The translations under genes were made by a program, and so were the position numbers. The notes under the pieces were generated by a model, which saw nothing but the letters and a program-made list of their open reading frames with translations, searched no databases and was not told the DNA's origin. Source: a virus. From it: a stretch of 64,000 bases of DNA. Where the stretch lies: UHGV virus genome UHGV-0098755. One strand, 5' to 3'. Numbering within the stretch: the first letter of the stretch is position 1; every line of letters starts with the position of its first letter. This document shows positions 4,508-40,415 of this stretch, one piece after another.

Positions 4508-4767
4508 AAAAGATTCCTTTTAATGTATCTTTTAGACCATTCTATCATATCATCATAATCTAAAAAGTATTCATCAAATTCAGCCATGCAAACAACACCT
4601 TGCGCTGCTTTTGATGTGATATAAATTATTCCAACATATCTAGAATCTTCTTCGGTGTAATCAATATTTGCTATGAATTCATCATTAATGTCAAATGTCG
4701 AAAACTTCACAGTATGCATCCTTAATACAAGATACAGCCATATCTTGTAATGATTTAGGTGTGTCAT
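4504..4767 (-). CDS. hypothetical protein (T4 46.1 position)
   Basis: 87 aa ORF; overlaps next ORF, start uncertain. Confidence 0.45.
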   Translation of the reverse strand: MTHLNHYKIWLYLVLRMHTVKFSTFDINDEFIANIDYTEEDSRYVGIIYITSKAAQGVVCMAEFDEYFLDYDDMIEWSKRYIKRNLL

Positions 4768-4954
4768 TATCTAAAATGTTGAAGTTAAAAGATACAGCCC
4801 AGTCAGTGCAGACCGTAACCTTTTTAATACAATTATCTTCAACTTCTAGGGGTTCAAACCAATATTCAATAATTTCTTTATGCCCAATATCATCTTTTAC
4901 TTCGCATTCAAAATGCTGACACATCATAACATTTTTAAATTCATCAAAAGTCAT
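4691..4954 (-). CDS. hypothetical protein (T4 46.2 position)
   Basis: 87 aa ORF directly downstream of gene 47. Confidence 0.45.
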   Translation of the reverse strand: MTFDEFKNVMMCQHFECEVKDDIGHKEIIEYWFEPLEVEDNCIKKVTVCTDWAVSFNFNILDNDTPKSLQDMAVSCIKDAYCEVFDI

Positions 4955-5970
4955 TGTGTTGCCTCTACATATAACTGATTTGCATATTGAATAAGTGCTT
5001 CACGGTCAGAATCAGTGATGTCTGGAATTGCATTAATGTATTCTTCCATCAATGTCTGAAGAGATTGAACTTCAACTTCTTCACTATCATCTGACTCGAC
5101 AGAGTTATCAATCTTTGACACAACTCGTAATGAATGCACAACTTTTTCTAGTTCAGATTCGAACTTCGTTAGATTTTTGTCTACCTCAGTTACTATAACA
5201 CGCACTGATAGATTTGTAAAATCTTTATAGTCAATTTTTCCTTTAAATGGATACTGAATTCGACGATGCCAGGTAGTGTTGTTTGGAATAAATTCCATTC
5301 GTTCTGTTTCTGTATCAAACATCCAGAACCCACGAGGGTCATTCTCGTCACCCGCAGTTAGTGTCCATGGTGTCCCAATATATCTGACGTTAGCAGCCTC
5401 AGAGATAGTATGGAAGTGACCAGACCACACTTCTTTATAAGTCTTAAGGAAATCAGGTTCAAGACCGTGAGATTTCATTCCTTTATAAAAATAAAATCCA
5501 TTCAGTTCCCAGTGACCAACACAAAAAGAAGCAGATGAAGTTTTGATGTGTTCAAGAATTTCACCAGTATTTTCTTCGCACATCCAAGGAATTAAATCAA
5601 TCAAACATCCGTCAAAATCTACTGTAGTAGGCTTATCATATACTTTAACATTAGGGTATTTAGCCAAAAGCTCAGTAGAAGCATTTGGAGTTAAAGTATT
5701 TTTAAAGTGCATATCATGGTTTCCTACAACAGTATGTAGGGTAATACCAGCATCATCAAGCATTTGAACTATTTCACGGGCAAACTCCATAGTTTTATGC
5801 GTGATTGCTTTTCGCACATCAAAAATATCACCGTATTGAATCCATGTAGTAATTCCGTTTTTCTTAGAATATTCTATCGCTTGCTTAATTCCATCCAGCT
5901 GAATAGATTGAACCCACTCATCATCAGCTTTAACGCCTAAATGCCAATCACCTAAATTTAAAATTTTCAT
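4951..5970 (-). CDS. 47: recombination endonuclease subunit gp47 (Mre11/SbcD-like phosphoesterase)
   Basis: 339 aa; calcineurin-like phosphoesterase motifs (GDWHLG, GDIFD, GNHD, GHWE, GHFH). Confidence 0.92.
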   Translation of the reverse strand: MKILNLGDWHLGVKADDEWVQSIQLDGIKQAIEYSKKNGITTWIQYGDIFDVRKAITHKTMEFAREIVQMLDDAGITLHTVVGNHDMHFKNTLTPNASTELLAKYPNVKVYDKPTTVDFDGCLIDLIPWMCEENTGEILEHIKTSSASFCVGHWELNGFYFYKGMKSHGLEPDFLKTYKEVWSGHFHTISEAANVRYIGTPWTLTAGDENDPRGFWMFDTETERMEFIPNNTTWHRRIQYPFKGKIDYKDFTNLSVRVIVTEVDKNLTKFESELEKVVHSLRVVSKIDNSVESDDSEEVEVQSLQTLMEEYINAIPDITDSDREALIQYANQLYVEATQ

Positions 5971-6146
5971 ATATCAAGAACCGTCATTGAAATGCAAAAT
6001 AAAATTATTGAAATAAATCCATCTGGAGTACTAAAGAACCCAATCCAACACGCTCTGGTGAATAGATAAAATGCAAGAAAAAGTATCACATATCCAAGAA
6101 ATATCATTATATCAAACTCCGTATAAAGCTAAAGGGCCGAAGCCCT

Positions 6147-7349
6147 TTATTTTGTAATAATGTCAAACTGCTCTTTAAAGCAGAAGCTTGAATCTTGGTG
6201 CTGATACAAAAATTCATAAGCTTTTTCACGTTCACGGTCATAAAGAGCTCGGTCAGATGACAGTTCTTTAATACGTTCAAATGTTGATTCCATGTCATTT
6301 TCATCAAACCAAACGATACCGCTATCGTGTGAAATTAATGGAGTATTATCAACACGGAATTTTAAATTTTCGCCAGTAGATTTCCAAAATACTGGAATTG
6401 TTCCACATGCACCAAGCTCGAGATGAGTGTATTCTAAAGAACGCTGTAGATATTTTTTATCTAATTTACTCAGCTGATAACCAAATCCGGATTTACTCAT
6501 GCGTTCAAGCATTTCGCTATTTACATAACGGTCAAGAATTTGCGTTGGCAAATTAGGAGCAATTTTAATTTGGTCTACTTGATGAAGACGATAATACTCG
6601 TATGGAATTCCTTTTTCTTTAATAGGAATGAACGCTGGAGAACGTTCCAGACCTTCCATAATAGTACTTAGTCCTGCAGGTTTAAGATGTTTTTCATGAA
6701 AATCAAACATCTGATAAAAGCCTTTCCATGTAGTAGTACGACCAATCCAACGGTTGATATTCATGTTAATTTCAGAAACATCTTTCCAGTAGGTTGATCG
6801 AACCTTCGCAATATCCATAGGAGGCTGAAAGTTATATACGGTCGGTGCTTCTTCAATATCATCAAACAAAGAAACAGTTTCCGGATACCATTCTTTCATT
6901 AAAACTTTATTAAAATCACCATTATCAGAATGGCTAAAAATAACATCAGCTCGACGAACAGTTTCTTCTAATCCCAAATTTCGACGCAAAGAAAGAGAAG
7001 AATGGTCATGCTGATAAACTACAACACGAACCGAAGGTTTAATGTTATCAATAATTTTTTTATAGTTATTAATCGTGTCTTCTTCAACTGAAGTAGCAGG
7101 AACTGAATTGATAACTAGAATATCACAATCATTTACCAGCTTAAGTGTTTTATCGTATTCTTTTGCCAATAAAACTGGAATTGAAAATGACTTATAATCA
7201 TGCGCACAATTACGAGTAAATGATTTATCTTTAGCATAAACCAAAGTTACTTCATGACCATTTTTAATAAACCAATCACGCTGCTCAAGAGAAAATTTAG
7301 TTACACCGCAACCTTCAAGACCTCGAGCCATAAAAATACATACTTTCAT
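6147..7349 (-). CDS. a-gt: alpha-glucosyltransferase (DNA hmC glucosylation)
   Basis: 400 aa ORF; length, position (after 47) and N-terminus as recalled for T4 a-gt. Confidence 0.8.
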   Translation of the reverse strand: MKVCIFMARGLEGCGVTKFSLEQRDWFIKNGHEVTLVYAKDKSFTRNCAHDYKSFSIPVLLAKEYDKTLKLVNDCDILVINSVPATSVEEDTINNYKKIIDNIKPSVRVVVYQHDHSSLSLRRNLGLEETVRRADVIFSHSDNGDFNKVLMKEWYPETVSLFDDIEEAPTVYNFQPPMDIAKVRSTYWKDVSEINMNINRWIGRTTTWKGFYQMFDFHEKHLKPAGLSTIMEGLERSPAFIPIKEKGIPYEYYRLHQVDQIKIAPNLPTQILDRYVNSEMLERMSKSGFGYQLSKLDKKYLQRSLEYTHLELGACGTIPVFWKSTGENLKFRVDNTPLISHDSGIVWFDENDMESTFERIKELSSDRALYDREREKAYEFLYQHQDSSFCFKEQFDIITK

Positions 7350-21484: not shown

Positions 21485-22465
21485 TTATTTTAGAAGAGTA
21501 ACCTCAGCAATTTCTTCCCAACCATTTTTGTCGGTCATAATAAAGTCAGCAAGATAAAGAGCAGTACGCAGTGAAACATTGCGTAAACGATTAACATTAA
21601 CTTTCATCCATGATAATGCTTTATAAGTTTCTTCATCAGAAAGACCGCGCTTTTGCATCATGTCAGTTGAAAGAATAACATCTTCAACCCTGACCATAAT
21701 TTCTTCATTAGTGTGAACACCCAAATCTAAATAAACCGAGCGGGACACTAATGCTTGTAAGTGTGGAGCAAGTTTAGTACCACGGTCTAATTCGCGGTCA
21801 ATGTCAACGTTTGTGATAAAAACAATCGTTCCTTTAAATTCAAACTCACGGTCAATGCCTTTTTCTTCTAAGTAAGAAGATGCAGTGCTCCAGCAGACTT
21901 TACGGGTCTCTCCAGTGTCCAGAGCAGCTTTTAGAAGATTAAGAATGTCCATATCAGAGAAAACATCCACATCATCAATCAAAAGGACAGAATTCTCTTC
22001 ACGATTATTCCAAAGCTGTTCATAAAGACCAATACCAGAGATTTTACCATTAATGCTTTTATATTCAATGTATCCATTATCATTTGCTTTATTTAAAGCT
22101 TTATCTAAAGAATACGTTTTACCAATACCTGCTGCGCCAGAGATAATTAATGAACGAATATTTCCATTAATAATACCATTCGTCATCATTCCCATAACAT
22201 TAAATCTTTTATTAATGCGGGTTTTCATATCTTCATACGATTCTTTAACTTCTTCAACTTTTACACCATCATATGAAATATCTGATTTGTAAACCCAAAC
22301 ACCGCGACGTTTACCGTCAATTTCAACAAAAACTTTACCATCTCCTTGTGCATCTACCGGAGCATTATCTGGGAACCATTCGCCTAAGAGCTCAAAAGTT
22401 CCAGAGATTTCTTTACCGAAGTAGATACCCTTATTGATAGTTACAGTTTTCATTTTATTCTCCAA
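21485..22465 (-). CDS. P-loop NTPase (AAA-like) of unknown function
   Basis: 326 aa; Walker A SGAAGIGKT and Walker B VLLIDDVD. Confidence 0.6.
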   Translation of the reverse strand: MENKMKTVTINKGIYFGKEISGTFELLGEWFPDNAPVDAQGDGKVFVEIDGKRRGVWVYKSDISYDGVKVEEVKESYEDMKTRINKRFNVMGMMTNGIINGNIRSLIISGAAGIGKTYSLDKALNKANDNGYIEYKSINGKISGIGLYEQLWNNREENSVLLIDDVDVFSDMDILNLLKAALDTGETRKVCWSTASSYLEEKGIDREFEFKGTIVFITNVDIDRELDRGTKLAPHLQALVSRSVYLDLGVHTNEEIMVRVEDVILSTDMMQKRGLSDEETYKALSWMKVNVNRLRNVSLRTALYLADFIMTDKNGWEEIAEVTLLK

Positions 22466-22522: not shown

Positions 22523-22786
22523 TTATTTTAATGTTTGCCAAATTTTTACTGCTTCGCGACGAGATACTTCTACGGCGCCAAGTTCTATAGCTTTTTGGCG
22601 TCGCCGAGCGTGTAAGTCATAATGTTTAATGCGTTTATCTTGAAACCAAGAACGTTTCATTCCTATTGCTTCTGCCATTTCGTGAAGCTCTTCAATATCT
22701 CCATCAGTGAACATATGACAATTTTTAGTTGGATGACCGCGAAGTTTCCATCCATGATTCATTAAAACATCTACGTAAACTGTCAT
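22523..22786 (-). CDS. hypothetical protein (nrdC.11 position)
   Basis: 87 aa ORF. Confidence 0.45.
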   Translation of the reverse strand: MTVYVDVLMNHGWKLRGHPTKNCHMFTDGDIEELHEMAEAIGMKRSWFQDKRIKHYDLHARRRQKAIELGAVEVSRREAVKIWQTLK

Positions 22787-22932
22787 TGATTCTTCTCCAA
22801 ATAAGTTTCGATAATTTTCTGGGCGAGATAAACCGCGTTATCTTCAGTTGCGTCTTCTAAGAAACTTTCAAAACACTCTGAAATTTCTTCTGTATCAATC
22901 AACTTTTTTACTTCAATTGGTGTAATTTTCAT
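22784..22932 (-). CDS. hypothetical small protein
   Basis: 49 aa ORF (below track cutoff) read by hand; stop overlaps next gene's ATG. Confidence 0.3.
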
Positions 22933-22965: not shown

Positions 22966-23000
22966 TGTATAGTACCATAAAGCTTTATGCTTGTAAACCA
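22966..23000 (-). promoter_or_regulatory. T4 early-type promoter (conserved cassette)
   Basis: GTTTACA ... TGGTACTATACAACTATCAAAAC. Confidence 0.5.
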
Positions 23001-23015
23001 CTTTGTGAAAAATTT

Positions 23016-23048
23016 TTGAAATAAAAAAGGGGACCTCTAGGGCCCCTT
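23016..23048 (-). terminator. intrinsic terminator after the 161 aa gene
   Basis: GC-rich hairpin then U6. Confidence 0.55.
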
Positions 23049-23057
23049 TGTGTTGAT

Positions 23058-23543
23058 TTATTCCATTTCTACTATATGCATGTTCTTTTTGCTATCAAAA
23101 TATATGTTTTTAACTATTAACTCAGAATTAATTGGCAGTAAAAACTCTCTTTCATAATCTACCATACAAAGATTATCATAAAGCTTGTTAAGCTTATCAT
23201 CGTCAGTTTGGCCAGATTCTTCAATTGCGATTAAATTTTCTAAAATGTCAATCATAGCAGTCGAATAGTCGAAAACGTTTGCATTTTTTAACACTACTAA
23301 AACATTAGTCATATAGCGTTCTGCCGCAAACGTTTCAGCTATATGAGACTCACTGCTAAAGGAAGTTATTCTTTTAAATTTGATTCTCCTATTAACTTCA
23401 AACTTATAAGATAGCACTTCCTCTATTGTAAGTCCTCTAAAAAGCACGTCTTTAATCTCAAGTTTGTCTTTAATGTAATCATTAACACGCTTATGATTAA
23501 AATCATTAATTTTGTTGCCAAGGCATTGCATTAAAATATGCAT
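23058..23543 (-). CDS. hypothetical protein with ADP-ribosyltransferase-like R / S-x-S / E-x-E motif spacing
   Basis: 161 aa; FRG (~aa 36), SFSSES (~aa 62), YEREF (~aa 130); own promoter and terminator; motif match by eye only. Confidence 0.35.
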   Translation of the reverse strand: MHILMQCLGNKINDFNHKRVNDYIKDKLEIKDVLFRGLTIEEVLSYKFEVNRRIKFKRITSFSSESHIAETFAAERYMTNVLVVLKNANVFDYSTAMIDILENLIAIEESGQTDDDKLNKLYDNLCMVDYEREFLLPINSELIVKNIYFDSKKNMHIVEME

Positions 23544-23587
23544 TGTATTCTCCTCAATTTTTAAAGAGCAATTAATTAACTACACAT

Positions 23588-23621
23588 ATATTATAATATG
23601 CTTTGCGATAGAAGTAAACAA
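23588..23621 (-). promoter_or_regulatory. T4 early-type promoter for the 161 aa ART-motif gene
   Basis: TGTTTACT ... CATATTATAATAT. Confidence 0.45.
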
Positions 23622-23641
23622 CTTTGTGACGTCATTTTAAA

Positions 23642-23669
23642 CAAAAAAAGGGGAGCCCGAAGGCTCCCT
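23642..23669 (-). terminator. intrinsic terminator after the nucleotidyltransferase-like gene
   Basis: GGGAGCC-TTCG-GGCTCCC hairpin then U7. Confidence 0.6.
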
Positions 23670-23670
23670 A

Positions 23671-24684
23671 TCATTTATAATAACTTCGGTGGTTTTCAAG
23701 ATAAACCCTCTCAAGGAAGTCATCCCAGAAACCCATGTCTACTTTTTGCTGCATACCGTTCTTAGAAGCTTCAATTGATGCTGCTTCTACTTGATCGACC
23801 ACATCTTCCAAAAACTCTTGAACCGTTTTAAATGGATGTTTACCAAGCTTCACGTCGAGAATAAATGGAGCGTCTTGGAGTGGATAGACTAAGTCACCAG
23901 TTTTGTAAATTTCCAATAGTTGGAGTCCACCACGACAAGCATGACTCAGAGCTTTCCAGTCAATACCCTCATTCGCTTCAGCCTTACGAGCGCGTTCACC
24001 ATATTCGGCATCAAGTTTATTCAAAGACTGCTTAAGCTCAATAAGAGAAAGTGTTGTCTGATATTTACGACCCAACACGGTATAAAACGTTTGTGGGCCT
24101 GTTTTCTCATGATTATGGAATACCCATTCGCAGAATTCGTTCTCTGGAAGACGATGCTTAATATCTTCAACTTTAGTGCGACGTTGCTTAATAGAACCAT
24201 CTTCTTGGTAATCAACCCACTGGTCAGGGATTTGATTAACTACTTTCAATACATCACGTAATGCGGCCAAACGAGAACCCTTGACACCGTATTTAGAAGC
24301 TTGCTTGCGAACATATCCTAAATAGGATTTCATGTTAGTCGTATAAAAACGAGAACGATTGTCTTGAATGAACTTCCATACATCAGGCAAATCAGATTTA
24401 ACTACCAGTTCAGGTGGAGTGTGGAGCATATCCAATGCTACAGTTTCACCATCTGCTGCTAATTTAAAGAAATACTTAAGACTGTACAGTTCATGGTCAA
24501 TATCATCTTTAGTGTTTTTAGATGATGTGTTGTTAGTGTTTTTACTCATATGCTCTTTAACATTTCCAATAAGAATATCACGAGCAGGAGGAACAAAGAT
24601 TTCTTTAAAATCTACATCAGATTCTGGAGTAGAAGTTCCATAAAGATGACTACCAAAATAGCTTTTCATTACTGTTTTCATCAT
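23671..24684 (-). CDS. Pol-beta-superfamily nucleotidyltransferase-like protein
   Basis: 337 aa; N-terminal YFGSHLYGTSTPESDVDF matches the GS-x(9-13)-DxD nucleotidyltransferase signature; helical C-terminal half; terminator hairpin after stop. Confidence 0.55.
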   Translation of the reverse strand: MMKTVMKSYFGSHLYGTSTPESDVDFKEIFVPPARDILIGNVKEHMSKNTNNTSSKNTKDDIDHELYSLKYFFKLAADGETVALDMLHTPPELVVKSDLPDVWKFIQDNRSRFYTTNMKSYLGYVRKQASKYGVKGSRLAALRDVLKVVNQIPDQWVDYQEDGSIKQRRTKVEDIKHRLPENEFCEWVFHNHEKTGPQTFYTVLGRKYQTTLSLIELKQSLNKLDAEYGERARKAEANEGIDWKALSHACRGGLQLLEIYKTGDLVYPLQDAPFILDVKLGKHPFKTVQEFLEDVVDQVEAASIEASKNGMQQKVDMGFWDDFLERVYLENHRSYYK

Positions 24685-25142
24685 TCAGCCTTATATTCAA
24701 TAACAGGACATACTTTAGCTTTACGCGCTTTTAAAAATTCGACGATAATAGATTTCTTGGGTTGAATAGGAGGTAAACCTTTATACGCCCTATCAATATT
24801 TTCTACGTGTAAAGCATAGTCCTTTTTCCATTTATAATCTTTATATTTTTCATGCAGTTGTGCAGGAATAACAAATGAACCAATAATAAGTAAAACAAGC
24901 AAAATGGCAAGTATAAATGCTGATGGAATAAGAGTCCATAAACTACCAAAAATAAGCCATTTCTGTATGATTTCTGCGCAGATGATAGTTAGACCTGCGA
25001 GTATAGTACATCCGAAAAAAGAAACGAAAAATGTAGGGATAACAATAGACCAAAAGTATGCGCACAGCGTCTTAGGTCGTTGCCATTCATCGTTAAACAA
25101 TTTGAATAATTTATAGTGCCAAGAGTTTTCATTAATAATCAT
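24681..25142 (-). CDS. membrane protein (about 3 TM helices)
   Basis: 153 aa, three long hydrophobic segments; overlaps the nucleotidyltransferase gene start by 4 nt. Confidence 0.55.
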   Translation of the reverse strand: MIINENSWHYKLFKLFNDEWQRPKTLCAYFWSIVIPTFFVSFFGCTILAGLTIICAEIIQKWLIFGSLWTLIPSAFILAILLVLLIIGSFVIPAQLHEKYKDYKWKKDYALHVENIDRAYKGLPPIQPKKSIIVEFLKARKAKVCPVIEYKAE

Positions 25143-25144
25143 AA

Positions 25145-25666
25145 TTATCCTTTCATTGAAGGTGTAACAGTTGTTAAATATTTAATCATAGCTTCAGCTT
25201 CTGATTTTGATAATGAAATTTCTCCATTGTTTTGACGAATAGAAATAAAATCCGGATGACGGTCACCACCGGCTTTTAAAACACACATATAAGTATCAGA
25301 TTCGTCTTCGATATTTGAAATGATTGAAGCAGTTCCACACGAATGTGGTTTTTGATAAATCAATACAGCTTTTCTTCCACCGTTTGACTGTTCATAAACT
25401 TTTAACACATCAAACAAATCACTTCTTTTATCAATAGCTAAGATGTTATTTTCATCTTCAATGTTAAATCCTTCGGATACTTCATAAAGTGTTACCCATA
25501 AATCACCTATATCGATAGTAGCATTTACTTTTCCATGACTTTCAAGAGCATGACAAATTTTCTTGATTTCGTCATAACTCATTTTAATAATATCATCTCC
25601 TTGAATAAGGAAGATGTCATTTTTAAATTCAACACGAATTAAACCACTTTCACTTGAAATAAACAT
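25145..25666 (-). CDS. hypothetical protein, tandem paralog B
   Basis: 173 aa; shares C-terminal block (...EAEAMIKYLTTVTPSMKG) and internal GFNIE motif with upstream 185 aa ORF. Confidence 0.5.
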   Translation of the reverse strand: MFISSESGLIRVEFKNDIFLIQGDDIIKMSYDEIKKICHALESHGKVNATIDIGDLWVTLYEVSEGFNIEDENNILAIDKRSDLFDVLKVYEQSNGGRKAVLIYQKPHSCGTASIISNIEDESDTYMCVLKAGGDRHPDFISIRQNNGEISLSKSEAEAMIKYLTTVTPSMKG

Positions 25667-25672
25667 ATTTCC

Positions 25673-26230
25673 TCACTTTGAAATCATAGTTGGAATGACA
25701 GAATCAAGATAAGTCTTTAGCGCAATAGCTTCGTCTTTGGTAAATGTGACAATATGTGATCGAAAATCGTCAATTTGGCGAATAGTTAAGACATCTCCTT
25801 CTTCATAACATTTTGATACATTTAAAACAGTTTCATCATTCTGATCACAAGCGTTAGTAATAATAGCATTGCAATTTTTAAACCATTTTAAACTATGTTT
25901 TCTTTCATTAGAATAATAAAAATATTTAATCTTAGTTATAAAATTATCCCAATTATTAATTGATAAGCATATTGACTCGCTTTCAATATTAAATCCTGGG
26001 CATGAAGAATAAAAATGAATTTTATGCTCATCATTAATGCTTACAATTTTATCAGTATAAGGATTTTCAATTTGGGTTAAATGAATGATTTCACTAGGCG
26101 TAAAATACAGCATATCGTCTTCTTGCGTCAAACGATACATATTATTTACTTTTTCTATAGCCAATTCACCAAAAAGTGAACTAACTTCTAGTACTAATCG
26201 TTTCATATTGATTCTCTTCGACTCACTCAC
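25673..26230 (-). CDS. hypothetical protein, tandem paralog A
   Basis: 185 aa; ...DEAIALKTYLDSVIPTMISK C-terminus similar to paralog B. Confidence 0.5.
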   Translation of the reverse strand: MSESKRINMKRLVLEVSSLFGELAIEKVNNMYRLTQEDDMLYFTPSEIIHLTQIENPYTDKIVSINDEHKIHFYSSCPGFNIESESICLSINNWDNFITKIKYFYYSNERKHSLKWFKNCNAIITNACDQNDETVLNVSKCYEEGDVLTIRQIDDFRSHIVTFTKDEAIALKTYLDSVIPTMISK

Positions 26231-26363
26231 AATTACATACTCCTTTGAATAATATCAATAATATTGTTCACTAGATTATAAGTAAACATTGGGTAATTAT
26301 ATTGAATCATCACATACACAACAAACAAAACTTTCATTCTCTTCTCCTTGACAGTTGACAAGA

Positions 26364-26396
26364 TTACTATATCATAACCTTGCCAACTTGTAAACC
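26364..26396 (-). promoter_or_regulatory. T4 early-type promoter for the paralog/TM/nucleotidyltransferase operon
   Basis: GGTTTACA ... TGATATAGTAAT. Confidence 0.45.
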
Positions 26397-26397
26397 A

Positions 26398-26571
26398 TTA
26401 AATGACGTTTTCAATAAAATTCTGAAGCTTTGTGTGCGCATCAACCATAATTTTCATTTCTTCCTTTGCGAAAGCTGTACCTCTTTCCCGAGCAGAATAC
26501 TCATAGTCAGAAACTGCATTAGCATATTCTTCAATTAGCTTCATTAAAAACATCTGCTTTTCAGTTTTCAT
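26398..26571 (-). CDS. hypothetical small protein
   Basis: 57 aa ORF read by hand, GGTGGA upstream of ATG. Confidence 0.25.
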   Translation of the reverse strand: MKTEKQMFLMKLIEEYANAVSDYEYSARERGTAFAKEEMKIMVDAHTKLQNFIENVI

Positions 26572-39587: not shown

Positions 39588-39663
39588 TGGTCGAGGCAGT
39601 AGGGATCGAACCTACGACCCAGGACTTAGAAGGTCCTTGCTCTTCCTTCTGAGCTATGCCTCG
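39588..39663 (-). tRNA. tRNA-Arg (anticodon UCU)
   Basis: Cloverleaf folded by hand: perfect acceptor stem, T-arm GGTTCGATCC, anticodon loop CUUCUAA, CCA encoded. Confidence 0.8.
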
Positions 39664-39667
39664 TATT

Positions 39668-39742
39668 TGGCGGACGTGATAGGATTCGAACCTATAACCA
39701 ATCGCTTAACAGGCGATCGCTCTGCCATTGAGCTACACATCC
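39668..39742 (-). tRNA. tRNA-Asn (anticodon GUU)
   Basis: Hand-folded; D-arm GCTC/GAGC, anticodon stem ATCGC/GCGAT, loop CUGUUAA, T-arm TTCGAAT, CCA encoded. Confidence 0.75.
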
Positions 39743-39746
39743 AAAT

Positions 39747-39833
39747 TGGTGGGGAGTGATGGAGTCGAACCACCCGAGTCGCAATGACAATGGATTTACA
39801 GTCCACACCGCTACCTCTACGGGATAACTCCCC
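39747..39833 (-). tRNA. tRNA-Tyr (anticodon GUA), long variable arm
   Basis: Hand-folded 87 nt; anticodon loop CUGUAAA; long extra arm; T-arm GGTTCGACTCC. Confidence 0.7.
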
Positions 39834-39842
39834 AAATTAATT

Positions 39843-39917
39843 TGGTGGCCCTGGGTGGAATTGAACCACCATCTGGCGATTATGAGTCGCTTGCTTGAAC
39901 CTTCCAGCTACAGGGCC
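39843..39917 (-). tRNA. tRNA with anticodon CAU (Ile2/Met type; T4 tRNA-Ile equivalent)
   Basis: Hand-folded; anticodon loop CUCAUAA; T-arm GGTGGTTCAATTCCACC. Confidence 0.7.
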
Positions 39918-39918
39918 T

Positions 39919-39994
39919 TGGTGCTGATTGACGGAATCGAACCGCCGACCTTCTCATTACAAGTGAGTTGCTCTACCTACTGAGCTAAATCAGC
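39919..39994 (-). tRNA. tRNA-Thr (anticodon UGU)
   Basis: Hand-folded; anticodon loop CUUGUAA; D-arm GCTC/GAGC. Confidence 0.8.
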
Positions 39995-39999
39995 AAAAC

Positions 40000-40089
40000 T
40001 GGCGGAGGCGATAGGATTTGAACCTATGAGTCGCCGGAGCGACTGCCGGTTTTCAAGACCGGTGCATTAAACCACTCTGCCACGCCTCC
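40000..40089 (-). tRNA. tRNA-Ser (anticodon UGA), long variable arm
   Basis: Hand-folded 90 nt; anticodon loop CUUGAAA. Confidence 0.8.
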
Positions 40090-40091
40090 AG

Positions 40092-40165
40092 TCTCCATAC
40101 AAGGATTTGAACCTTGGACCTCCTGATCCCAAATCAGGCGCTCTACCAAACTGAGCTACACGGAG
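40092..40165 (-). tRNA. tRNA-Pro (anticodon UGG), CCA not encoded
   Basis: Hand-folded; anticodon loop UUUGGGA; T-arm AAGGTTCAAATCCTT. Confidence 0.75.
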
Positions 40166-40175
40166 TAAATTAAAT

Positions 40176-40249
<74 letters not shown>

Positions 40250-40254
40250 AAATT

Positions 40255-40341
40255 TGGTGCGAGAAGTGGGACTCGAACCCACAAGGAAATCATTCCGCAG
40301 CATTTTAAGTGCTGTGCCTTTACCAATTTGACCATTCTCGC
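40255..40341 (-). tRNA. tRNA-Leu (anticodon UAA), long variable arm
   Basis: Hand-folded 87 nt; anticodon loop CUUAAAA. Confidence 0.8.
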
Positions 40342-40342
40342 G

Positions 40343-40415
40343 CTGGGAATAAAGGACTCGAACCTTTGCATCTAGCAGTCAAAGTGCTATGCCTTACCAA
40401 CTTGGCTAATTCCCA
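40343..40415 (-). tRNA. tRNA-Gln (anticodon UUG), CCA not encoded
   Basis: Hand-folded; anticodon loop CUUUGAC; abuts tRNA-Leu 5' end. Confidence 0.75.

Follow-up and report, generated by a model that had tools for sequence, protein, structure and literature searches.

The stretch of DNA analyzed here, referred to as the window, comprises 64,000 nucleotides of the virus genome UHGV-0098755, which belongs to a Tequatrovirus-type (T4-like) phage. The analysis concerned a block of early genes at positions 23,058 to 26,571, all on the minus strand, which encode two proteins of the T4 MobD.1 (y05I) family, a small membrane protein, the nucleotidyltransferase NrdC.11, and a short ADP-ribosyltransferase. 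In an earlier note on this DNA, the block had been described as a cassette at a hyperplastic mobD-equivalent position and proposed to be an undescribed host-takeover or anti-defence module. The question addressed was whether these genes constitute one system or several.

Genes and transcription signals of the interval

All five open reading frames (ORFs) previously reported, together with the promoters and terminators, were confirmed from the ORF list and a pattern scan. One early transcript, running from a promoter at 26394 to a terminator at 23651, would cover mobD.2, mobD.1, the mobD.1 paralog, the membrane-protein gene, and nrdC.11. The early-type sigma-70 promoter at its head (26366 to 26394, minus strand) has the form TTTACA-17-TATAGT with an extended TG and scored 10/12 in the pattern scan; its core, GGTTTACA, aligned with the remaining T4-type early promoters in this region. 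The unit begins, between this promoter and paralog A, with an ORF encoding a 34-amino-acid homologue of MobD.2 (26233 to 26337, minus strand). This homologue, MKVLFVVYVMIQYNYPMFTYNLVNNIIDIIQRSM, differs from T4 MobD.2 at only three positions, and an AAGGAG ribosome-binding site is located upstream. Then follow, on the same strand, paralog A (25673 to 26230), a 185-residue orthologue of T4 MobD.1; paralog B (25145 to 25666), a second y05I-family protein of 173 residues that is absent from T4; the membrane protein (24681 to 25142), of 153 residues and likewise absent from T4; and NrdC.11 (23671 to 24684), a 337-residue Pol-beta nucleotidyltransferase of the RlaP family. The last two genes are joined by the previously noted 4-nucleotide overlap, which reads ATGA. 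The spacers further upstream measure 2 and 6 nucleotides, and a ribosome-binding site is present at each of these three tight junctions. The unit ends in a G+C-rich intrinsic terminator (23651 to 23668, minus strand), a stem-loop, GGGAGCCTTCGGGCTCCC, followed by a T run. The mobD.2 homologue had been missed in the earlier description of a compact four-gene unit.

The 161-residue ADP-ribosyltransferase, a short Mod-type enzyme of the R-S-E clade, is encoded downstream at 23058 to 23543 (minus strand). As claimed previously, its gene appears from the sequence to be transcribed separately, from its own early promoter (TTTACT-17-TATAAT; 23590 to 23618, minus strand) to its own terminator (23030 to 23046, minus strand), a stem-loop, GGGGCCCTAGAGGTCCC, with a T run located 3' of the gene. 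A further early promoter, TTTACA-17-TACTAT with a TG, follows at 22969 to 22997 (minus strand). The 326-residue ORF at 21485 to 22465, which had been assigned to the nrdC.11 position, is nrdC.10, while the 337-residue gene is nrdC.11 itself; the earlier mapping was therefore off by one gene.

Terminator-like sites were enriched in the region according to the pattern scan (7, versus 2.2 +/- 1.5 in shuffles), and an Rfam scan of the interval returned no RNA family. The best match to the sigma-70 consensus in the region, TTGACA-16-TATCAT (11/12), was located on the plus strand at 26348 to 26375, where it overlaps the early promoter of the unit; as no plus-strand gene comes after it, this match is probably due to chance. 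The G+C content was clearly higher in nrdC.11 (0.39 to 0.42 at 23600 to 24400) than in either the MobD.1/paralog region upstream (0.26 to 0.31) or the ADP-ribosyltransferase cassette downstream (0.30 to 0.31).

Distribution of the locus among T4-like phages

The transcription order in the T4 record is tk, rI.1, rI, rI.-1, mobD.5 to mobD.2, mobD.1, mobD, nrdC.11, and nrdC.10. Comparison with T4 by blastn revealed three clean replacements or insertions. Positions 25647 to 24686 of the window, containing paralog B and the membrane gene, are replaced by mobD in T4, while positions 23613 to 23032 (the ADP-ribosyltransferase cassette) and 22925 to 22466 (a 49-residue ORF and an 87-residue DUF4031 protein) are missing there. 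The placement of the whole cassette at the mobD position therefore held for paralog B and the membrane gene (~24686 to 25647) and for nothing else. T4 mobD encodes a free-standing HNH homing endonuclease, and its insertion site, nrdC.11/mobD.1, is listed in PMC2988022. The same mobD.1-nrdC.11 interval in the window is without an endonuclease and holds paralog B and the membrane gene, as it does in most relatives. No match to a homing-endonuclease family (HNH, GIY-YIG) was obtained for any of the five proteins in Pfam and PHROGs scans, in agreement with the earlier note.

Whether the cassette was unique to this genome or shared had been left to comparison, and it proved to be shared: the region was matched in 685 phage records by megablast, with at least 80% coverage in 320, T2 being included at 93% identity. 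Counts for the individual genes were obtained by tblastn over phage records. NrdC.11 was found in 1514 records (500 at 90% identity or more), reaching the T4-like phages of Aeromonas, Acinetobacter, Vibrio, and Caulobacter. The membrane protein was found in 935 (423 at 80% identity or more) and paralog B in 479 (434 at 80% or more). T4-type MobD was present in 47 records at 95% identity or more, and the ADP-ribosyltransferase in 44 at 90% or more, with T2 among the carriers. Hence, the arrangement with paralog B and the membrane gene is the majority state of the locus, and the reading of it as a novel, mobD-equivalent cassette was rejected. This arrangement is probably also ancestral. T4 is the exception, its homing-endonuclease gene having taken the place of paralog B and the membrane gene, as follows from the counts, in which these two genes are common and mobD is rare. 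The gene-by-gene map of a much-sequenced locus is thereby corrected, with T4 emerging as an atypical phage in which two genes still present in most relatives have been displaced by a homing endonuclease.

T2 presented a different state. In the record NC_054931 (positions 4723 to 6264 of the extracted locus), three genes are each broken up over different reading frames and appear in the annotation as short pieces, namely, those for MobD.1, paralog B, and the membrane protein. The same phage has intact copies of NrdC.11 (98.8% identity) and of the short Mod enzyme (95% identity). The other complete T2 records and SV76 gave the same match over the region by megablast (93.4% identity) as T2 did, the frame splits having been read in NC_054931.

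Predicted properties of the encoded proteins

The 337-residue protein was 98% identical to T4 NrdC.11 and matched phrog_388 (E = 7e-137). Its only above-threshold Pfam match was RlaP (PF10127; 43.7 bits against a cutoff of 23; E = 3.4e-11), which substantiates the previous assignment to the Pol-beta-type nucleotidyltransferases. The GS...DxD signal, on whose persistence that assignment had been made to depend, was retained in the profile search, and G11, S12, D23, D25, and D85 were invariant in an alignment of five orthologues from four genera. The nucleotidyltransferase prediction itself dates from 2006, when it was based on a match to COG3541 (PMC1524935). More recently, T4 NrdC.11 was placed in RlaP cluster 5 in a 2025 preprint, in which "three strictly conserved aspartic acids" are required of RlaP (PMC12776372). 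The N-terminal Pol-beta catalytic domain of the window protein resembles that of the RlaP family (PF10127; PfRlaP and PaRlaP) and has all three catalytic aspartates. Identity among the NrdC.11 proteins of the four genera was 64 to 98%, with the neighbouring genes much less conserved; given this identity and the 1514 phage records, nrdC.11 appears to be under strong purifying selection. Searches of the PDB by sequence and by profile identified no solved relative.

The two Pseudomonas enzymes PfRlaP and PaRlaP add one or two nucleoside monophosphates to the 3'-OH of RNA and favour damaged RNA, and Pseudomonas RlaP is needed for over-trimmed tRNA to regain aminoacylation after repair (PMC12776372). 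In an earlier prediction from Aravind's group, RlaP, working alongside phage RNA ligases, replaces the nucleotides that RloC-type nucleases remove (PMC7824862). By analogy, NrdC.11 most likely acts before ligation, restoring the nucleotides that broken tRNAs have lost at their 3' ends. Its substrates would be broken RNAs, chiefly tRNA halves trimmed by host anticodon nucleases, whose 3'-OH it would extend by one or two nucleotides, after which the phage kinase/phosphatase and RNA ligase would reseal a functional tRNA. The strongly conserved NrdC.11 would then be a candidate for the "nucleotide-restoring" step that is missing from phage tRNA repair.

Several points weigh against this assignment. 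The RlaP match is limited to the N-terminal catalytic half (residues 7 to 135, corresponding to positions 23 to 142 of the 249 in the profile), leaving the C-terminal half of the ~337-residue protein, ~200 residues, unmatched; in RlaP enzymes, a helical domain at the C terminus and the catalytic domain together form a cleft for RNA binding. T4 remains viable on laboratory strains of E. coli after deletion of nrdC.11 to mobD.3 (PMC9825161), so any role would be conditional. In addition, an RNA ligase gene (RtcB or 5'-phosphate ligase) was not found among the neighbours of NrdC.11 in the window and five related loci. Association with an RNA ligase is what defines the name of the RlaP family; in T4, Pnkp and Rnl1 are encoded elsewhere in the genome.

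Paralog A was 88% identical to T4 MobD.1 (E = 6e-120) and belonged to phrog_1502. That the two y05I proteins are tandem paralogs, as proposed earlier, was supported by BLASTP (26% identity; E = 2e-10) and by the presence of both T4_y05I_N (PF24449) and T4_y05I_C (PF24448) in each. The scores were 138.9 bits (E = 9e-41) and 74.7 bits (E = 7e-21), respectively, for paralog A and 113.4 and 83.5 bits for paralog B, relative to Pfam cutoffs of 24.9 and 27 bits. The tandem duplication is present in the window and absent from T4. In Pfam, the y05I domains carry the label "putative transcription factor," and literature searches for "y05I" and "mobD.1" returned no functional information.

Repeated beta-beta-beta-beta-alpha units superposed on solved members of the PUR/Whirly/PC4-like fold. 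The structural relatives (Pur-alpha, Whirly, MRP1/2, and PC4) all bind single-stranded DNA or RNA and are composed of beta-sheet-plus-helix repeats. The MobD.1-type proteins are therefore predicted, from models, to be PUR/Whirly-like single-strand DNA/RNA binders with three such repeats. Two would make up the N-domain, and the third may serve dimerisation. This layout of a two-repeat N-domain and a one-repeat C-domain parallels Pur-alpha, in which repeat III dimerises. Confidence in the AlphaFold2 model of paralog B (pLDDT 77 overall) was ~88 for the N-domain; the C-domain was of low confidence (pLDDT 50 to 79), which speaks against the prediction for that part of the protein. The repeats themselves were weakly related by hhalign, with repeat 1 against repeat 3 giving a probability of 62% (E = 8e-5; 28 columns) and the other pairs not being significant. 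No sequence similarity to Pur-alpha or Whirly was detectable in the y05I proteins, whose homologues are confined to T4-like phages. A PDB sequence/profile search with paralog A yielded nothing usable, and a fold search in a viral structure library recovered only family members and uncharacterised Bacillus-phage proteins. A modelled fold typical of single-strand nucleic-acid binders provides a testable lead for the MobD.1 family.

T4-like phages of Klebsiella and Enterobacter keep only a ~70-residue y05I C-domain protein, encoded directly upstream of the membrane gene (L005, 3777 to 3998; L006, 3772 to 3978). Such a protein, with just one PUR-like repeat, could function as a homodimer.

The 153-residue membrane protein matched phrog_944 (E = 3e-50). 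It had been described as having three transmembrane helices; it does appear to be a membrane protein, but the hydropathy of its hydrophobic core (residues ~28 to 98) fits either two helices or three. An exhaustive search at E <= 1e-3 returned 436 cluster representatives, most of them full-length at 130 to 170 residues, and a Pfam scan of 63 members of the family found no Pfam family in common. It is accordingly a widespread, uncurated phage family that is not in Pfam. C27, Y29, C145, and P146 were invariant in the family alignment and S7, W8, and H9 nearly so, defining the N-terminal motifs SWH and LCxY and the C-terminal motif KxCP. The two invariant cysteines and the SWH motif suggest a conserved function on a soluble face, such as metal or redox chemistry, or lipidation. 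A link between the membrane protein and the nucleotidyltransferase outside the T4-like phages was also considered and failed in the jumbo Serratia phage BF, in which no gene long enough to encode an NrdC.11-sized (~330-residue) protein was present in the 4 kb on each side of the membrane gene.

The 161-residue protein was 30% identical to T4 ModB (E = 3e-15) and 28% identical to ModA (E = 4e-10) by BLASTP. It matched phrog_832 (E = 1e-23), and the Pfam domain Mod_ADP_RT (PF26816) was found on its homologues. The R / S-x-S / E-x-E motif described earlier did align with the catalytic residues of ModA and ModB, with R36 corresponding to ModB R73, E131/E133 corresponding to ModB E171/E173, and the S-x-S motif conserved. 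R36, G37, and S61 were invariant in 13 family members; E131 and E133 were invariant in a six-sequence alignment and at least 90% conserved in the 13-member alignment. In a Foldseek search, the AlphaFold2 model (pLDDT 90.3; pTM 0.83) gave 82 PDB matches at E <= 1e-3, headed by C3 exoenzyme, Tre1, ExoS, VIP2, and Certhrax, all of which are ADP-ribosyltransferases of the R-S-E clade, while PDB sequence/profile searches yielded nothing usable. Both the sequence and the model thus identify the gene product as a putative third Mod-type ADP-ribosyltransferase with a short N terminus.

The window enzyme shares with ModA and ModB their homology, catalytic residues, early promoter, and predicted C3/ExoS-type R-S-E fold. 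It differs in lacking their first ~40 residues (the alignment begins at ModA 38 and ModB 39), in being located at nrdC.11/nrdC.10 rather than beside modA and modB, and in its sporadic occurrence (~44 records) and absence from T4. Phages that carry the 161-residue gene also retain modA and modB, to which it is therefore an addition. ModA modifies the alpha subunit of RNA polymerase, and ModB modifies S1, EF-Tu, and trigger factor, in both cases with NAD+. The name "RNA polymerase ADP-ribosylase," under which the window enzyme appears in databases, derives from its family. With NAD+ as substrate, the enzyme, putatively arginine-specific, would most likely modify a host protein at an early stage of infection, and a role in host takeover is reasonable. 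T-even phages such as T2 would carry a fourth ADP-ribosyltransferase never met in T4 work.

The gene is flanked by two PeSL (promoter-early stem-loop) units, in each of which a stem-loop is followed directly by an early promoter, and the pair borders the indel between close relatives. The upstream unit (23668 to 23590) combines the nrdC.11 terminator stem with the promoter of the ADP-ribosyltransferase cassette, and the downstream unit (23046 to 22969) combines the stem 3' of the gene with the promoter at 22969 to 22997. Both fit the consensus TTTACW-N17-TAYWAT reported, with the mechanism, for the PST/T4 pair (PMC4122927). At the empty nrdC.10/nrdC.11 site, T4 has a single PeSL composed of the upstream stem and the downstream promoter: the stem at 23651 to 23668 is identical to that in the T4 intergenic region, and the promoter at 22969 to 22997 is nearly identical, by alignment and blastn, to the promoter half of the T4 unit. 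Such a hybrid is what gain or loss mediated by PeSL units would be expected to leave. A 181-residue homologue with 61% identity was found between regA and the DNA polymerase gene 43 in an uncultured T4-like phage (L007, 6001 to 6546; L008, 2946 to 3491), and one with 53% identity was found downstream of an RlaP gene in a third phage. The presence of homologues at other loci and the PeSL flanks argue that the 161-residue gene is a mobile cassette independent of the upstream operon, which PeSL recombination may move between phages and loci. The case is alike in kind to other PeSL cassettes of T4-type phages (PMC2839356, PMC4122927), here with an identifiable enzyme as cargo and not an ORFan.

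Independent accessory genes or a single system

Taken together, the data make it likely that the early genes of the interval are independent accessory genes, assembled as a mosaic in the variable nrdC-rI region of T4-like phages, and not one system. The genes varied independently in T4, T2, and other phages. T4 retains NrdC.11 and MobD.1, whereas its paralog B and membrane gene have been displaced by mobD. In T2, NrdC.11 is intact, and the three genes upstream of it are frame-broken, which argues against one obligate four-gene machine. The record counts of NrdC.11, the membrane gene, and full-length y05I differ two- to threefold, and the membrane-protein family occurs in phage BF apart from any NrdC.11-sized gene. 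On the other side, the order y05I(-C), membrane protein, NrdC.11 is kept from the Tevenvirinae to the Acinetobacter Twarogvirinae, and the genes are tightly coupled, so some functional link could exist. The rival view is that both MobD.1 paralogs, the membrane protein, and NrdC.11 act as a single host-takeover or anti-defence machine. Such a machine could be an RNA-repair or RNA-modifying complex anchored in the membrane, with the PUR-like proteins handing RNA to NrdC.11. In favour of this view, the genes share a single promoter and a single terminator, their junctions are an overlap and spacers of a few nucleotides, and a nucleic-acid-binding fold beside an RNA nucleotidyltransferase is a plausible partnership. 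The order of y05I or its C-domain, the membrane protein, and NrdC.11 is also retained in Mosigvirus, Klebsiella phages, Kanagawavirus, and one uncultured phage, and the membrane gene is still upstream of NrdC.11 in the Acinetobacter Twarogvirinae. However, of the named groups only Mosigvirus has the membrane gene and nrdC.11 abutting, with one to three unrelated genes between them in the others, and because T4-like genomes are generally collinear, conserved order is weak evidence of a functional link. A single machine is therefore considered improbable.

The proposal of an undescribed module was not sustained by the searches for defence-related functions or by the family assignments. When eight proteins were scanned against NCBIfam and PADLOC, nothing but noise below threshold was returned, and the only PADLOC matches were marginal and unconvincing (paralog A, E = 0.0019; nrdC.10, E = 0.023). 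The same scans bear on whether the nucleotidyltransferase might instead interfere with host immunity, as a signalling-nucleotide or toxin/antitoxin-type enzyme similar to MntA, AbiEii, or the CD-NTases. Weak similarity to NTP_transf_2 (E = 0.074) and to the MntA antitoxin (E = 0.06; 13 bits, with the cutoff at 60) was detected below threshold, but these matches span ~18 residues (G-S...D-x-D) common to all Pol-beta enzymes, RlaP alone exceeded its threshold, and PADLOC gave no match for this protein, making such an activity very unlikely. Slightly less probable still is a two-enzyme NAD+/nucleotide module in which the ADP-ribosyltransferase works with the nucleotidyltransferase or the DUF4031 gene. 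The three genes are adjacent in the window, and the 53%-identical homologue elsewhere is again downstream of an RlaP gene, but the ADP-ribosyltransferase gene has its own promoter and terminator, the ~44 records of its orthologues compare with 1514 for NrdC.11, its 61%-identical homologue lies at the regA-DNA polymerase locus, and T2 has the enzyme without a DUF4031 gene. A new kind of system in the interval is thus not supported, its parts being members of known or catalogued families; what is new is more modest, namely, the modelled PUR-like fold of the MobD.1 proteins, the putative third Mod enzyme carried by PeSL units, and the uncurated membrane family with two invariant cysteines.

Within the mosaic, a more speculative combination of roles may be envisaged, although it is rather unlikely as a whole. 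The short Mod enzyme would be a mobile host-takeover or counter-defence effector with a target unlike those of ModA, ModB, and Alt, and separately the MobD.1-type PUR-like proteins would be RNA chaperones that feed damaged tRNA to NrdC.11. The enzyme's PeSL cassette is present in T2 and ~40 further T-even phages and is missing from T4. One possible activity would be the inactivation of a host factor involved in immunity or translation. If the enzyme were an effector with a new target, some of the differences between T2 and T4 in sensitivity to bacterial defence systems would be explained.

Between the ADP-ribosyltransferase cassette and nrdC.10 lies a separate insertion relative to T4 and T2 (22523 to 22932, minus strand). 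It comprises the 49-residue ORF (22783 to 22932), which corresponds to phrog_6888, and the 87-residue protein (22523 to 22786), which matched Pfam DUF4031 (E = 1.5e-21); phrog_4887 was also matched in the insertion. A PDB sequence/profile search with the DUF4031 protein found no solved relative, and a literature search for "DUF4031" found no functional information. A pairing of this protein with the ADP-ribosyltransferase was considered and rejected, since T2 has the latter without the former. Elsewhere in the window, ten tRNA matches were clustered at 39591 to 40415 on the minus strand, one of them at the threshold (30.2 bits versus 29); the tRNA count of T4 is eight (PMC4122927).

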